From Candidatus Iainarchaeum sp. (GTDB lineage: Archaea; Iainarchaeota; Iainarchaeia; Iainarchaeales; CSSED10-239): 7,153 nt of DNA. The position numbers and the translations under genes are program-made. Of the stretch, positions 1 to 7,153 are shown in pieces. Below the pieces are notes generated by a model. That model worked only from the letters and a program-made list of their open reading frames with translations. It did not search any database and had not been told where the DNA came from. The DNA lies in NCBI GenBank assembly GCA_937968065.1, contig CALBUD010000072.1, forward strand, positions 1 to 7,153, read 5' to 3'. Numbering within the stretch: the stretch's first letter is position 1; every line of letters starts with the position of its first letter.

Positions 1-1488
1 GGAATTACTAAAATATATAAAATTATAAATAAAGAAAATAGAGAAGCTATAGAATTTATATTAGATAGTCAAAGTAAATTAAATTATAAATATGTAACTT
101 TACCAGAAGTTAATGAAGGAACATTTATAACTACCAGAGATATTTTTTCTCAATTTGGATGAAATACTGCTGAAATGAATAATGTATATATTTCTATAGA
201 ACAACAAAAATTATCTCCAAATGAAGAATGAGTTGAAGCAAAATATATAATCCCAGAACAATATGATATTAATGAATTAGATATTTTAAAATCTGGAAAT
301 ATATTAAGAGGTAAATTTCTTATTGAAAATCAAACTATTGATCCCGGATTTAAAGATGTTACTGATGATTTAATTGTTAAATTAAGTGAAAAAAGAAATG
401 TAGATAAACCGGAAGGATTATTTATAAAACGAAAAGGAGATTATAGAGTAAGATATAATGCAAATTTATATCAAACAGATTATACTTCTGATAAAAATAA
501 ATTTGTAAAAGGAAATTCATTTGTAGTTTTAACTTCTGAACAACAAACATCAGAAGGATATTCTAAATCTGGAAACAAGACATATAGAGTAATAGGACGA
601 TCTAATGAAAAAGTAACATTAGAGTATAATGCTTTTAATAAAAATGGTAAATTATTAAGTATTATTAAAGAATTAAAGATTGATGAATTTTCTGAAAAGA
701 TAAAATGATTATATGTTATGAAAGGAAGTCCTGAACATCATCAACTTAAAGAAATTCAAAATAAAAAGGAATTAAAACAAGTTGAAAAAGAAGCAAAACA
801 AAAAGCAACTAATAAAAAAGAATTATACAATACTTTACAATTAAAATTTCAAAAAATTTTTAAAATAAAAGTTGAATTACAAAATCATGATTCAGGTCAA
901 TTTAAAAATAAAAAAGCATGGATTAATGCTGATCCTTTAGGTAAACCTACTATTGTATTAAATACAGCAAATATTAATACATCAGAAGAAGATTTGATTC
1001 ATGAATATTTACATTTATTTTTAATAGCTTTAAAATATAATGAAACTGATCCAAAAGGACCAAGTTCTTATGAAAAATTATTGTTAGATTATAAAAATTC
1101 TTTTGAAGGTAAAACTTCTGAAGATCCAAAAAAACAACAAAGAATTGATTCTATAGTAAATACAAATAATATAAATACATTAGAAGAATTTTTTGTTCAA
1201 GATATTAGTAAAATAATGGTTGAACAAAATTATCAAGACCTTGATGAATTTAACTTTGATAATTTTTATCAAGCAATAAATAATTCTTTAGAAAGTTTAG
1301 AAGTAGAAAATACAACTCCTTTTGCTGATGATTTATTTGGAATATTAACACATAAAATGTCGTCTATATTTCCAAGAATGAGAGATAGTCAAATGAGTAA
1401 TAATAGTTTAATCTTATTTGACGCTAACTTTAGAAATTGATTAGATAACCAAATTAGTAAGAAGAAAATTGAAATTTTATGTCAATAA
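1..1488 (+). CDS. 5'-truncated large protein (495 codons visible). The C-terminal part has a coiled-coil-like segment and an HExxH zincin-like metallopeptidase motif. Requires TGA=Trp.
   Basis: Checked codon by codon, frame 1 is open from base 1 to TAA at 1486-1488. The only interruptions are TGA at 160-162, 229-231, 706-708 and 1438-1440, with no TAA or TAG. Track ORF 718..1440 is the largest standard-code fragment of this gene. The sequence has a Lys/Glu-rich stretch (...LKEIQNKKELKQVEKEAKQKATNKKEL..., about 745-830) and then ...GKPTIVLNTANINTSEEDLIHEYLHLFLIAL, with HEYLH at 1000-1014. Confidence 0.8.
1000..1014 (+). other. HExxH (HEYLH) candidate zinc-metallopeptidase active-site motif within the 1..1488 CDS
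   Basis: The codons are cat gaa tat tta cat. They follow a predicted beta-like stretch (PTIVLNTANI) and an acidic turn (SEEDLI). They are followed by a hydrophobic helix-like stretch (LFLIAL). This is the usual zincin context of strand, then helix carrying HExxH. I could not identify a third metal ligand. Confidence 0.4.
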
Positions 1489-4400
1489 GTCAATGTACAT
1501 ATTCAATTCCTGATGAAAATAAAGTCGGATTAGATTTTATTTCGTTAGTAAAACACTATTATAAATCAACAAAAATATTAAAGAATAGTAATATATTTAG
1601 TTCTGATGAAATAGTAGAAAGTGTTACTAAAAAATTAAAGGAACAATTAAATTTAAAAGATGATATTATCAATAATATAATTACGGATGGTAGAGGTAAT
1701 AAAGTACAATTAGATAAGAACGATATTAAATCTGCTTTGGATTTTATTGTTGCTAATAATTTACAATTATACAAAGAAATTGGTATAAGTCAATCTCAAT
1801 TATCTCCAGAATACATTAGAGAAAATAGAATATTAAATTTTATTAAAAATTCTCTTTCTGATCAAGGATTACGTATTGAAGAAAAAGACACTTTATCAGA
1901 TTTAAAAGTTAAATATGCTGATGAAGTAAAACCAATTGAAGAAGATATAATAGAAACTTTAGAAATAGAAGAAAAAACAAATGCTATTGGTAGAGCTTTA
2001 CATAAGACTTTAAATAATATAGTACTTGACGAAGGAACACTAACTCAAAAAAGTTTATATCATTTACGAAAAGTTTTAGAAGAAAATCAAGAAATATTAG
2101 ATGGAGATTTAGATGATTGAGTAAATCATTTCTCAAATATTGTAAAACAAATTTATTTTTCAATAACATCTAAAGGTAGAGTTTTATCTGAAGTTTGATT
2201 AAGATCCAATAAAGAAGCATTAGCTCAAGTTAAAGGAGCTATAGATATTTTAATTGTAGACGATTTTGGTAATGTTCATATATATGATTTAAAATTATCT
2301 AAACATAAATATGATAATTGAGATTCAGCTAAGAAATTAACAACTGATTGACAGTTAGCGTTTTACAGAGCATTACTTGGACAACATGTTCCAATTAATA
2401 ATACAGAATTAAATTTAATTTCTATTGTAGTTGGAGATTATAATGAATCTAAAAAATTACAATTAAAAAATGTAAGATTAGAACCTATAAGAAATAGATT
2501 AGCTGATGAAACAGGTAAACCTTTACAAATTGTTAATAAAGATTTAAGTACTGATTATGTTCCTGGAAAATTAACATTAGGTAAAATGTATTTAATTGCT
2601 AGGAAATTAATTCCTGAACAAAAGCAATTAGACTACGATCCTAAAAGAACAAAAGATATAAATGATACATTAGCATTAATGTTTCCTAATTATAAACCAT
2701 TAATTAGTAGATCTGAAGCTGCTTTTGATGTAGAAGTTGAATTGAAAAAAGCAATACGAAATTCTGGATTTACTTCAAAATATTCAGATTTTGTTCACGA
2801 AGGAGTAAAAATTAGTAGAAATGGTTGAGTTAGTGTAGATCCTAAAATAGATGAAAGATTTAAAACATCTAAAGAATTAGAAGATGAACTTAGACCAATA
2901 TTACAACATTATGCAGAGTTTGTTAAAAGTAATGAAAATAATATAATTTCTAGACTTAGAAATACTATTTCTCAAGCAATTCAAAACCAATCAGTAACTA
3001 AAATAGATTTAAATAACGCTCAAGAATCTGCATTTGTTAAAAATGTAGTAAATAAATATGTTAATGGAGATTATAGATTAATAAGTAATTCTGAGGAATT
3101 AGATTCTTTAGGTTTAATTCTTTTACAAAATACTAGAACTGGAGCATATGTTATATTAAATGTTACAGTAAATAACTTAAAAGTTCAATATGACGAAAAT
3201 TATTCTATTGCAGATATAGAATATATTAAAGCATTAACTTTTTTCAATTTCTTTGAATCAGAATTACAATTAACTCTGAATAAAATTGAAAATATAGAAG
3301 TTATGAATATTGATGCTAATAGAAATGCTAATAGAAGTTTAGATCATGTTTTTGAAATATACAGTAATACTATATCTCCGACAGGTATAACAAATAATTT
3401 ACATAAAGATCATTTATTGAATAATGTTCAAAGAGCAGAAGAATTAGTTAGACAAGAACACAGAAGAGCTTTTAATGAATTACCTGAAGGTGACAAACAA
3501 GCTATTAAAGAAATTCTTGATGAATATGATGAAGCTGCCGGTAACTTAAGTTTATTTCAATTAAAAGAAATAACTAGAAAATTTGTTAAACAATATCCTG
3601 AATTAGAACAGAAAACATATAAAAGTGGATTTGATTTTAATAACCCAATTGAAAGATTATTTGCTTATATTCAAGTATTATTATTAGCTAAAGCTGATAT
3701 AATTCCAGAAGGAGACCTTGAAGGAAATAATAATTATAATATTAGATTTTCAAACTTAAAAACTTTCTTTTCTGGTTTATTATCTAAAGATATAAGAGTA
3801 TATGATGAAAATGAAAGAAAATTAGGTGGATTAATTGAAGGTTTAAAAACAAGTACTCCTGATAAAATGAAGTCCAAAGATTTACAAAATATTAATGGTC
3901 TTATCAATGGTACTAACAATAGAATAGGTAGTAGATTTATACATGAATCAGTTATACTTAATAATGCTACTAAAAAATACTATAAAGATATAAATTATGA
4001 TTGAGTTTCTGAAAATGTAATTGCTAATCATAGAATAAAATTTAAAAATCTTTGAGTAACAGACAATTTAGGAAATGTAACTGGAGAATGACGTGTAAAA
4101 AATCCATATGATTATAGTCCTGAAAATGCTTTAACTGATGCAGAAAGAGAATATTTAAAACAAATATTATTTAGAATATATATTAATGGAATTAGTTTAC
4201 CTAAAGCTAAATATGATGCTATAGATATTAGTTCTATTGATAGTATTATGAAAACTGCTCCAGAATCTATGATTGAAAAAATTAATAAAGGTACTTATTT
4301 TGAAATGCCTATTATTAGATCTCAACAATGAAATAGATATGATAAAATTTGAGGAAGAGGATATCAAGGAATATTAGATACTGTTAAGTCTTTAGGTCAT

Positions 4401-6212
4401 GAAATCCATGATTATGTTGACGGAAGAGAATTAGAACCAGAAGAACTTCATAATATTAAAAAAGAAGCTGGGTTTTATGAAATGTACGATGTTTATGCTA
4501 AACAAAGTAGACAATTTATTCAAGATAAAGTTGCTGAAAAGGGAGAAGCATATTGAGAGTTAGATTTAGATGCTATTGCACATAGAGTAATTTTTAATAA
4601 AATAAGAAAAAAATATTTAGACAATATTCTTCCCGTAATCAGTGCATATATTTGAACTGCAAAAATTAGTGGAGGAAAACAAAATATAGATATTTCTAAT
4701 GAATTAGAATATGCTTTAAGAAGATTAAAATTAGCATCTAAAGATGAACATATTATTGATGAAGATTTTGAAGATGTAGTAAGTTTAGCAGGAACAGCAA
4801 AAAGAATTACTACTAAAGCAATGTTAGCATTTCGTCCTGCATTACTAGTTAAAGAATTAACTATTGGTCTTTATAAAAATTATATGTTAGCAGCAACTCA
4901 AATGTTAGGTGAAGATCAATTTAATATGTCAGATTTAACTAAAGCTATAGGTAAATTAATGAGTATTGATAACAAATTTAGTGCAGAATGAAATTTAATT
5001 GATATGATTAATTCTGAATATAGGTTTGCAAACTTAGAATTGGGTACACTTCCTAATAAATATAAAACTAATAGAAAAGTTGGATTTTTTATGGGATTTG
5101 GTAAATGGATGTTTTCTATGAATACTATTCCTGATTATTATAATAGACTTTCTTTATTCTTAGCTAAAATGATTCATGATGGTTCATATGATGCCCATGT
5201 TATGGATGAAAAAGGACATTTAATATATGATCCTAGAAAAGATAAAAGATTTTCATATTATTTTGAAAATAGAGACAAACATAAAAATTCAAAAGGTCAA
5301 TATATTCCGGCTAAAAATGATTCAAAATATAATAAACAAAGAAATCTTTATTTGTTATTAATTAATCAAATATCAAAAGAAAGACAAATTCAGGGTGATG
5401 ATATTTTTACAGAAGAAGATTTAATTGATAAAGCTTATTCAGAACAAGAACGTAATTCATTTAAATCATTTACTGATACAGTATATGGTTATTATGATAA
5501 AGATTCTCAAGCAGAATGACATAATGCGTGATATGGAATGTTGTATTTACAATTCTTACAATTCTGACCTGGTAAAATGAGTTTATGATTTGGAACACAA
5601 TATAATAAGAAATTAAGTCCTATTGGAAAACATGTTCATAAAACTCAAAAAGACGCTAATGGTAAAGAACAATTAATGTATAAAAAACCTCTTTATGAAG
5701 ATCCTGCTAATCCTGATGAAATTACAGGATGAGAACCAACTACTGAAGACACTGGGGATCCAATATTAGAATGACAAGGTACAGCTTACGAAGGATTATA
5801 TTTTTCAATGTTACATACATTAAGAGATATTCTTAAAGGAGATTGAGAAAATATTAAAAATGAAAAAGTTAGAAGTAGAAGAGCATTATATGGTTTAGCT
5901 GAAGGATTTTTAATGTATGCTTTTTTCAAATTCTTACAAATGTTATTTGAAGCATGAATTTCACAAAATGGAACTGATGGTATAAATGGAGAAACAATGG
6001 AATTTATGGCATCTGTTAATAGAAAAGTATTAAATGAATCAAATGTATTAGACAATACTTTTGGAGCATTAAGATCTGAACCAGCTTTTTGAACTTATAC
6101 TATGCAAGTATCTCAAGATATGTATGATGTAATGACAGGATCTGGAAATAGAACTCCTCAAAAATTATTAGCTCGAAATATTAGAGCTTTTGAATTTTGA
6201 GATAATCATTAA
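1479..6212 (+). CDS. Giant 1577-aa protein with an N-proximal RecB/Cas4-family PD-(D/E)xK nuclease domain. The rest is unassigned, with an aromatic/Trp-rich C-terminal region. Requires TGA=Trp.
   Basis: Track ORFs 1479..2120, 2586..2828, 3303..4004 and 5004..5519 all lie in frame 3. I translated the gaps between them and every interruption up to TAA at 6210-6212 is TGA. There are 23 in total: 2118, 2196, 2319, 2349, 2826, 4002, 4053, 4089, 5517, 5529, 5565, 5586, 5730, 5772, 5844, 5955, 6090 and 6198, plus five more between 4300 and 5000. No frameshift is needed. ATG 1479 is the first ATG after the in-frame TAA at 1458-1460, and it overlaps the stop of the upstream gene. Only one TGG codon occurs in this gene (GKWMF). 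Confidence 0.85.
2190..2366 (+). other. PD-(D/E)xK nuclease core motifs (RecB/Cas4/AddB-like family) inside the giant CDS
   Basis: The translation is ...LSEVWLRSNKEALAQVKGAIDILIVDDFGNVHIYDLKLSKHKYDNWDSAKKLTTDWQLAFYRALL. GAID (Asp at 2244-2246) matches the GxxD motif II. IYDLK (Asp 2286-2288, Lys 2292-2294) matches the hhDxK motif III. QLAFY (Gln 2352-2354, Tyr 2364-2366) matches the QxxxY motif IV typical of RecB-family nucleases. A candidate motif I Glu lies at 2190-2192. There is no Cys cluster, so this is not an Fe-S Cas4-type variant. Confidence 0.7.
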
Positions 6213-6255
6213 AAAAATAAGCCCGACCACATTACGTGATCGGGCTTATTTATTT
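6211..6255. terminator. Bidirectional rho-independent terminator between the convergent giant gene and the SLT gene
   Basis: A GC-rich hairpin has arms AAGCCCGAcCAC (6219-6230) and GTGaTCGGGCTT (6236-6247), with one mismatch and a loop of about 5 nt (ATTAC). An A7 run lies upstream (6211-6217), which reads as T7 after the hairpin on the minus strand. TTATTTATTT lies downstream (6246-6255). The element sits 7-8 nt after the + strand TAA and about 16 nt after the minus-strand TAA. Confidence 0.8.
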
Positions 6256-6262
6256 AAATGAA

Positions 6263-7000
6263 TTAGGCAGGATACATTTTAAGGTATTCTGTTATATGTG
6301 TTTTATTGGCGTCTCTAAATCCTTGCTTTGCTAAAGGAGAATTTCGTGTACCAAGAAAATAATCTTTAACCGTACCTGCACCTAATAAGTGTGCAGCAGC
6401 TCTAATACCATTTTTTGTTATTTTAATTCCATCAACTGTTTTTCCACTAAACTCTTCAATTATATCTTTTAATCTACGTTCATTAAGTCTAGCTAATTCT
6501 AATGCTCCTTGATGTTGAACCAAAGTATCTTTAAATTGTTCTTTTGTTTTACCAATATCTTTTAAAGCTATGTTTCCAAATTGATATAAACCATAATAAC
6601 CAAGTCTATTTGTAACATCTGGTCTATAACTACTTTCTTTAGCTGCTAATTTTATTAAATAATCTTTATCTTCATCAGATATAGATAATCCTTTTATTTC
6701 GTCAATTATTTTATTAGATACTTCACTCATAGGTCTTAATATTTCAGGTGTTAATTCGTAATCATTAAAAACTTGTTTTGGTTTAGAAACTTCAGGAATA
6801 CTTATATTACTTAAATCTCATTTTTTTGGTTTATCTATGGATTTAGTTCCTTCAATAGAAGGTATATCTTGTTCAGTTATATTAAAATAATTTCTAAAAT
6901 AGGTATTATCAGGAAGAGCTATATTATAAGTATTATAATAATCTAACATCTCTTCTTTATTATTTAAACTTATAGGTTTAAATTCTGCAAATTGTTCCAT
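6263..7000 (-). CDS. Lytic transglycosylase / lysozyme-like (SLT domain) protein of 245 aa from ATG 7000 (251 aa if the TTG at 7018 is used). Has one in-frame TGA=Trp. Candidate endolysin or virion-associated peptidoglycan hydrolase.
   Basis: Track ORFs 6818..7018 and 6263..6730 are in the same minus-strand frame. They are separated only by TGA (6820..6818), and the 87 nt between them contain no stop (...KPKK-W-DLSNISIPEVSKPKQVFNDYELTPEILRP-MSEV...). The stop is TAA (6265..6263). The C-terminal half carries SLT-like motifs: AAKESSYRP (catalytic-type Glu-Ser, Glu at 6637..6635), GYYGLYQFG (the GLxQ motif, about 6599..6575) and AAHLLGAG (6397..6374, equivalent to the AYNxG region). There is no signal peptide or TM segment at the N-terminus. 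Confidence 0.8.
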
Positions 7001-7022
7001 AATTAATAATTTTATCAATTAG

Positions 7023-7054
7023 CAAAGTTAAATATATATTTTCATAAAATTATA
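7023..7054 (-). promoter_or_regulatory. Candidate promoter region for the SLT gene: a Bacteroidota-type -7 element TAnnTTTG and/or a TATAAT box
   Basis: The minus strand reads 5'-GATTTTTATATAATTTTATGAAAATATATATTTAACTTTGCTAATTGATAAAATTATTAATT-ATG. TAACTTTG (7030..7023) matches TAnnTTTG and ends 22 nt before ATG 7000. TATAAT lies at 7054..7049. There is no clean upstream TTTG at the expected spacing, and the AT-rich background makes chance matches likely. No Shine-Dalgarno-like purine tract precedes the ATG. Confidence 0.25.
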
Positions 7055-7062
7055 TAAAAATC

Positions 7063-7108
7063 AAAAAAAATAGGGGAATAAAGCAAATACGCTTCATTCC
7101 CCATTTTT
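7063..7108 (-). terminator. Rho-independent terminator, probably ending a minus-strand transcript that enters from the right edge. It also has a weaker T-run on the + strand.
   Basis: The hairpin arms are GGGGAATaAAGC (7073-7084) and GCTTcATTCCCC (7091-7102), giving 12 bp with one mismatch and a 6-nt loop (AAATAC). An A8 run at 7063-7070 reads as T8 following the hairpin on the minus strand. A T5 run lies at 7104-7108 on the + strand. These are the only GC-rich islands in an otherwise AT-rich spacer. Confidence 0.65.
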
Positions 7109-7153
7109 GTTGTGCAAATTATTAAATAATCATTAATTAAAAAAAATAATTAA

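Follow-up and report, generated by a model that had tools for sequence, protein, structure and literature searches.

The question raised by the 7153-bp stretch of DNA analysed here (contig CALBUD010000072.1 of assembly GCA_937968065.1, positions 1 to 7153; hereafter the window) is what the codon TGA means in its genes, and to what kind of genome such genes belong. When TAA and TAG are taken as the only stops (translation table 4), the window, which has a G+C content of 24.6%, contains three long open reading frames (ORFs), namely g1 (1-1488, + strand), g2 (1479-6212, + strand) and g3 (7018 or 7000 to 6263, - strand), and none of the three is intact unless TGA is a sense codon. We consider it likely that the window comes from a crAss-like phage with UGA read as tryptophan, and covers the place where the end of its late gene block and its lysis gene converge.

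The in-frame TGA codons number 28. Four are in g1 (160, 229, 706 and 1438, + strand), 23 in g2 (2118, 2196, 2319, 2349, 2826, 4002, 4053, 4089, 4329, 4350, 4554, 4653, 4989, 5517, 5529, 5565, 5586, 5730, 5772, 5844, 5955, 6090 and 6198, + strand) and one in g3 (6820-6818, - strand, residue 61), while TGG occurs in only two places, at 919 in g1 (KAWIN) and at 5106 in g2 (GKWMF). No in-frame TAA or TAG is present in the 2326 codons of the three genes, each of which terminates with TAA (at 1486, 6210 and 6265-6263 for g1, g2 and g3, respectively). All these counts had been given in an earlier reading made from the letters alone (the sequence-only reading), and every number was reproduced; its expectation that a standard-code gene caller would break the locus into pieces was also borne out, the longest ORF of the window under table 11 being 391 codons. 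The longest ORF free of TAA and TAG, by comparison, spans 1583 codons, whereas 200 shuffled sequences gave 107 on average and 192 at most, and the frame of g2 contains no TAA or TAG, while the two alternative sense frames have 146 and 178. TGA and TGG together make up 30 of the 2326 codons (1.29%). TGA acts as an ordinary codon in the genes of the window, the base following it showing no bias, and provides 28 of the 30 tryptophan codons (93%).

The amino acid specified by TGA was examined using the homologs of g2. A protein search gave eleven full-length homologs (P0001-P0011) of 1535-1644 amino acids, with identities ranging from 69% to 21%, and none of them ends at a TGA position. A first alignment of the TGA sites showed 137 W and 2 G among 253 cells. 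When g2 was aligned codon by codon with 13 homologs, the 23 TGA sites of the window gave 299 aligned cells, which included TGA (98), TGG (54), F (40), I (19), L (14), Y (14) and Gly (2). At 18 of the 23 sites, one or more homologs have TGG; a relative using the standard code (L001, a 163-kb contig with 31% G+C), whose g2 homolog has 22 TGG and no TGA, has TGG at 13. The locus of this relative contains no in-frame TGA, and four of its genes terminate with TGA; among the called genes of four recoded relatives (L002, L005, L007 and L009), none does. The other two genes of the window agree with g2. The TGA at residue 480 of g1 is aligned to TGG in L001 and L019, and the single TGA of g3, which is found at the same site in the g3 ortholog of L005, must be read through, as a conserved N-terminal segment precedes it and the SLT domain follows it. 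As no homolog stops at the TGA sites, and these sites align with Trp, the comparisons show that TGA is a sense codon meaning Trp, as the sequence-only reading had proposed.

Two other readings of the codon were weighed against these data. Glycine is the meaning of TGA (code 25) in some phages (bioRxiv 10.1101/2021.08.26.457843), such as those infecting Absconditabacteria or Gracilibacteria, hosts with which the low G+C content of the window would agree; nevertheless, two Gly cells out of 299, as opposed to 54 TGG, 98 TGA and a remainder mostly of F, I, L and Y, together with the ratio of W to G in the first alignment, refute this assignment, to which we give practically no credence. It is just as hard to believe that TGA is a true stop, the genes being pseudogenes or assembly artefacts, or that it marks selenocysteine or programmed read-through sites. 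Nothing speaks for a true stop beyond the standard meaning of TGA, and 28 TGA accompanied by no TAA or TAG at this base composition, as well as a g2 protein that is full length in eleven database proteins and in more than 40 loci, speak against it, as does the fact that the TGA sites fall on conserved Trp columns. Twenty-three selenocysteines in one protein would be implausible, and no selenocysteine insertion sequence (SECIS) element was detected in the window, where Rfam gave only weak, below-threshold chance matches on a terminator hairpin. Conservation thus rules out both the pseudogene and the selenocysteine readings, and TGA is taken as a tryptophan codon in what follows.

As to the lineage, the window matched no annotated phage at the nucleotide level, and the corresponding protein search retrieved only three unannotated 'Bacteriophage sp.' records with 24-27% identity, the largest of which (MT835470.1) is written in the standard code and lacks tRNAs. 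An exact 47-mer had no match among metagenome contigs, and for two table-11 fragments no record existed. The affiliation is provided by the neighbouring genes of the relatives. There, a helicase-like protein of about 2160-2530 amino acids is followed by a protein of 2000-3100 amino acids containing the sequence GSDFDIDKAY, and then by the homologs of g1 and g2, which form the end of this run of giant genes. In the contigs of 12 relatives, including L001, L005, L010, L012, L015 and L019, the giant gene that precedes the g1 homolog encodes GSDFDIDKAY; L005 is the closest relative (69% identity in g2). In the crAss-like phage phi14:2, DFDID is the catalytic motif of the virion RNA polymerase gp66, and every crAss-like phage encodes a protein with DFDxD (bioRxiv 10.1101/2020.03.07.982082). 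In addition, the Pfam muzzle protein crAss_MUZ was recognized (E = 3.7e-30) in a distant gut relative (L036, 26% identical in g2), the one relative in which it was seen. A search of Protein Data Bank (PDB) sequences, the gp66 structure included, gave no match for the giant DFDID protein or for the g2 family. The DFDID motif and the muzzle protein indicate that the relatives are crAss-like phages, and would place the window among them by way of the relatives' neighbouring genes.

In several relatives (L002 at 1-6279, L003, L004 and L017), the DFDID gene is interrupted just before the motif by an ORF for a LAGLIDADG endonuclease, and the interrupted gene translates as ...IIT*DTDFDIDKAY. A similar interruption is found in L007, L009, L013 and L014, and the gene is continuous in L005, L010 and L015. 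The position of the LAGLIDADG ORF suggests an intron inserted at the active site.

The g2 family is not uniform in its genetic code. The code of each locus was judged from ORF coverage in 41 IMG/VR loci encoding the family (L010-L050). Across the family, the standard code is used in L001, L033 and L036-L041, code 4 in L002-L032, and code 15, with TAG recoded, in L042-L050; L035 is apparently recoded in only part of the locus. The share of TGA among the Trp codons of g2 homologs is 0% in L001, 45-53% in L019, L013 and L002, and 96% in the window. Such a mixture of codes 11, 4 and 15 has been described in crAss-like phages, above all in the Zeta group (PMC7886860; PMC12386605).

Within the genomes of the relatives, recoding is unevenly distributed. 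According to the database gene calls of L002, L005, L007 and L009, the giant genes of the plus strand contain 104 TGA and 28 TGG, whereas the convergent block (ligase, dUTPase, helicase, RNR, Thy1, PNK and others) contains 12 TGA and 120 TGG (Fisher p = 1e-32). All 12 TGA of the convergent, early block are in L009, in genes for a GIY-YIG endonuclease, an endonuclease VII and one unknown ORF. A walk along 81 kb of the 172-kb contig of another relative (L010/L011, IMGVR_UViG_3300030685_000016) gave a similar picture, with 33 TGA and 224 TGG in 84 ORFs of the early strand, and 45 TGA and 11 TGG in three late genes. The lysin gene lies on the 'early' strand, yet it is recoded in L002, L005, L015 and L019 (two or three TGA and no TGG in each) and in the window. 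By inference from relatives 39-69% identical in g2, recoding would be confined to the late genes, that is, the giants of the DFDID region, and to the lysin, whereas the genes for replication and nucleotide metabolism on the opposite strand, written with TGG and avoiding TGA, would be readable in a standard-code host.

TGA-bearing ORFs of the early block were located in L009 (18773-19558 and 21854-22393), L061 (1067-2209) and L066 (2835-3221); several of them resemble homing endonucleases (a GIY-YIG, an endonuclease VII and a repeat-rich ORF with a Vsr-like C-terminus), and the others could be assigned to no family. Mobile genes may therefore be written in the late code. The idea that the TGA-bearing genes of the early block are those preceded by a TAnnTTTG motif looked promising in L009, but failed on the 84 ORFs of the walked relative (p = 0.27).

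The gene facing the late block in the window, g3 (6263-7000, - strand), encodes a protein of 245 amino acids of the type of SLT lytic transglycosylases, with one TGA and no TGG. The match to Pfam SLT is borderline (E = 1.8e-4, 21.5 bits against a cut-off of 21.3), and that to PHROG 27932 (tail lysozyme) has an E value of 1.3e-6; a catalytic-type glutamate, E122 (6637-6635), is present in AAKESSY...GLYQFG, which contains the ES...GLYQ motif. The stop and the strand assigned to the gene in the sequence-only reading stand, but its start is most likely the ATG at 7000 rather than the TTG at 7018, because the N-terminus MEQFAEFKP then resembles MFAEFTP in L005, whose ortholog is 53% identical, and MENSNFASYTP in L010. 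At the position of g3, L001 and L002 have a glucosaminidase lysin (for L001, E = 2e-46 with the PHROG endolysin), and for this reason the g3 slot is identified, by comparison of loci, as that of a lysin gene.

Two hairpins bracket the lysin gene. Between the convergent g2 and g3, a G+C-rich hairpin of 17 pairs, seven of them G-C, at 6215-6251, preceded by a run of A and followed by a run of T, looks like a two-way intrinsic terminator. Upstream of g3, a GGGGAAT...ATTCCCC hairpin with a T run (7073-7102, - strand; 13 pairs, six G-C) looks like the terminator of an upstream minus-strand unit, and g3 would therefore be a separate transcription unit. Between this hairpin and the gene, 23 nt upstream of the ATG, the sequence TAACTTTG (7023-7030, - strand) matches TAnnTTTG, refined to TAHHTTTG, the -7 box of the primary sigma factor (sigma-A) of Bacteroidota (PMC6847099, PMC9723704). 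TAHHTTTG was found 27-41 nt before the ATG of the lysin in nine of the ten sequences examined, including the window and the standard-code L001. Because TAnnTTTG is not enriched across the window (15 occurrences against 13.6 expected), the argument for a -7 box rests on this conserved position; a scan of the window for sigma-70 promoters likewise showed no enrichment (52 sites against 57 expected). The arrangement of a GGGGA...TCCCC hairpin, a T run and TAHHTTTG recurs before the lysin as a conserved module in the window (7019-7110) and in L001, L002, L005, L010, L013, L015, L019 and L023.

The gene starts also carry information about the host. Only 6 of 91 are preceded by a Shine-Dalgarno sequence (GGAG or GAGG), the background being 3%, and 70% have A at position -3, a pattern that corresponds to the Bacteroidota style of translation initiation. 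The crAss-like lineage, the TAHHTTTG box before the lysin, the scarcity of Shine-Dalgarno sequences and the A at -3 together indicate that the host is probably one of the Bacteroidota using the standard code.

If this is so, something would have to change the meaning of UGA during infection. It should be noted that, with 23 UGA codons in g2, a 10% yield of full-length protein needs a read-through of at least 90% at each site, and therefore near-complete reassignment rather than leaky suppression. According to the model of Yutin (PMC7886860) and Borges (bioRxiv 10.1101/2021.08.26.457843), late and lysis genes cannot be translated until the phage has changed the meaning of UGA. Applied to the present lineage, the early genes would be translated under the standard code of the host; a UGA decoder made by the phage, most likely a suppressor tRNA charged with Trp and possibly helped by interference with release factor 2 (RF2), would then accumulate, and the late proteins and the lysin would be completed only after this accumulation. 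With UGA effectively reassigned late in infection, AT mutational pressure, as reflected in the G+C content of the window, could then drive the change from TGG to TGA.

For the decoder itself, ARAGORN was used with default and relaxed thresholds, with and without introns, along with the Rfam tRNA models and a regular expression for the T-loop. The window yielded no tRNA, nor did the sequence within 10 kb of the locus in 57 loci of relatives. The walked relative L010/L011 contains an island of at least 21 tRNA genes in its early (replication) block, including a tRNA-Trp(CCA) with a U11:A24 pair in the D-stem; three further genes of the island are tRNA-like, one with a CUA (amber-type) anticodon and two with long arms. 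These features of the island are at 8552-8627 of L079 and at 8795-8880 and 5146-5259 of L159; the CUA gene has the anticodon loop AUCUAAG and scores 32 bits, below threshold, with the tRNA-Sec model, and the two long-arm genes, with variable arms of about 44 nt, are Leu- and Ser-like.

Several points weigh against the picture of a crAss-like phage that reassigns UGA for its late genes. The window contains no crAss hallmark gene, and its membership in the group comes by way of the relatives' neighbouring genes; nor does it contain an early gene, so that the restriction of TGA to late genes is seen in the relatives only. Some early-block genes of the relatives do carry TGA, although most of these resemble homing endonucleases. 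Finally, the search for a UCA tRNA and for release-factor genes that the sequence-only reading had proposed gave a negative answer: the window, the fetched loci and the 81 kb of the walked relative (about 90 kb of its contig being unseen) yielded no tRNA with a UCA anticodon, and no release-factor (GGQ) or tryptophanyl-tRNA synthetase (TrpRS) motif was seen in the window or in 1.6 Mb of loci, which are partial genomes. The absence of a decoder from the searched sequence is unexplained but not unusual, suppressor tRNAs having been detected in only 35% of code-4 phages (bioRxiv 10.1101/2021.08.26.457843).

These points bear on two further explanations. One is that the whole phage genome and its host natively use code 4, the host being one of the Mollicutes or another bacterium with UGA as Trp, and that no switch takes place during infection. 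The low G+C content and the 93% of Trp codons that are TGA do resemble Mollicutes usage, the window shows TGA-rich genes only, and the lack of a suppressor tRNA in the relatives would be expected if the host supplied the decoder. However, the replication genes of all the recoded relatives examined use almost exclusively TGG, which a code-4 host would not impose; the crAss-like lineage, the gene starts with A at -3 and no Shine-Dalgarno sequence, the Bacteroidota-type box before the lysin, and the use of TGA as a stop by the closest standard-code relative all point away from a native code 4, which appears very improbable. The other explanation keeps the late reassignment but dispenses with a UCA suppressor. 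UGA would be decoded by a phage tRNA-Trp(CCA) with an altered body, as in the Hirsh suppressor, which is a G24A change in the tRNA-Trp of Escherichia coli, or by the tRNA-Trp of the host, favoured by inhibition of RF2. The tRNA island of the walked relative, with its tRNA-Trp(CCA) carrying U11:A24 and no UCA anticodon in 81 kb, and the low frequency of suppressor tRNAs among code-4 phages cited above are in favour of this idea. On the other hand, the U11:A24 pair proves nothing, as it is also present in ordinary tRNA-Trp genes, e.g. that of Bacillus subtilis, and a UCA tRNA may lie in the unseen part of the contig. Near-cognate reading could hardly provide some 90% read-through or more at each of the 23 sites, and the Zeta crAss-like phage Lera does have a tRNA-SUP-TCA (PMC12386605). 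We therefore regard decoding by a Hirsh-type tRNA-Trp(CCA) or through a disabled RF2 as unlikely, and the same doubt applies to its corollary, in which the single UGA of the lysin acts as a translational lysis timer. If it were true, one UGA in a separately transcribed lysin gene with a host-type promoter would set the time of lysis at the level of translation. Late reassignment by a phage-made decoder, most likely a Trp-charged suppressor tRNA, is the explanation we prefer.

The window contains the last 495 codons of g1 (1-1488, + strand), whose 5' end is cut off. Its homologs in the relatives are late proteins of about 1150-1300 amino acids encoded directly downstream of the gene for the giant DFDID protein, and tblastn against the relatives' loci gave identities of 57% to L005 and 32% to the standard-code L001. 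No Pfam or PHROG match was found for g1, and neither g2 nor the neighbours of the two genes had a match in PHROGs. The start of g2 lies inside the end of g1, the two genes overlapping by 10 nt (1479-1488, + strand; ATGTCAATAA). The same 10-nt overlap is present in the gene calls of L005, L007 and L010, and its retention suggests translational coupling of the two large proteins.

The late protein encoded by g2 (1479-6212, + strand) has 1577 amino acids. Residues 165-304 (1971-2390, + strand) match Pfam PF12705 with E = 5.7e-8 and 33.4 bits (cut-off 22) and form a PD-(D/E)XK nuclease-like domain. A canonical motif of this kind, IDILIVDD...IYDLKLSK, is present at 2241-2303 (residues 255-275), with D256 and D270-L-K272, and the invariant columns of the g2 family are G253, D256, G264, D270, K272 and S274. 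The rest of the protein gave no match in Pfam, PHROGs or PDB sequences. Considering also that the gene is near that of the virion polymerase, g2 may be a putative nuclease that is packaged or ejected with the DNA.

The sequence-only reading was right in pointing to recoded metagenomic phages as the context of the locus (PMC7886860; bioRxiv 10.1101/2021.08.26.457843). The closest parallel is with the code-4 crAss-like phages of the Zeta group (PMC7886860; Lera, PMC12386605), a likeness based on shared features. In both cases, TGA falls on Trp and is concentrated in lysins and in genes that are structural or late, the standard code suffices for the replication genes, and codes 11, 4 and 15 switch between related phages over short distances. 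Shared features of the relatives also include the giant proteins around the DFDxD polymerase, the insertions of homing endonucleases or introns in conserved genes, and, in the walked relative, a tRNA island inside the replication block. Unlike the Zeta phages, the nearest relatives of the window (39-69% identical in g2) are all outside the annotated phage collection, and the G+C content is lower (22-27%); moreover, in contrast to the tRNA-SUP-TCA of Lera, the walked relative has no UCA tRNA in the part read.

The cases described by Borges (bioRxiv 10.1101/2021.08.26.457843; Agate, Jade, Sapphire, crAss and other clades) are similar in that TGA has been given up as a stop, the standard code is kept by a close relative and the lysin is recoded; a regulatory role of recoding is a hypothesis there as it is here. 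That survey concerned gut microbiomes, whereas several of the present relatives carry environmental IMG sample numbers, and no 'code-change operon' of RF1, TrpRS or suppressor tRNA was seen in the searched loci. Phage phi14:2 of Cellulophaga baltica shares with the relatives the DFDID motif in a giant protein (gp66). Its genetic code is presumably the standard one. Neither the giant DFDID protein nor the g2 family shows detectable sequence similarity to solved structures, that of gp66 included. In phi14:2, the injected polymerase transcribes the early genes, the middle and late ones being left to the RNA polymerase of the host (bioRxiv 10.1101/2020.03.07.982082), which fits with the host-type -7 box before the lysin in the window.

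For annotation, the consequence is that the locus needs table 4, or better a caller that assigns codes block by block, such as Mgcod; under table 11, the 1577-amino-acid protein becomes a set of fragments accompanied by spurious antisense ORFs. Recoding of late genes has already been described (Yutin 2021, PMC7886860; Borges, bioRxiv 10.1101/2021.08.26.457843), and the window adds one more case, by which an AT-rich crAss-like lineage outside the annotated phage collection joins the known examples of late and lysis genes written in a code unreadable to the uninfected host. With one protein family written in codes 11, 4 and 15, and with a TGA share ranging from 0% to 96%, the relatives of g2 provide a useful set for comparison.

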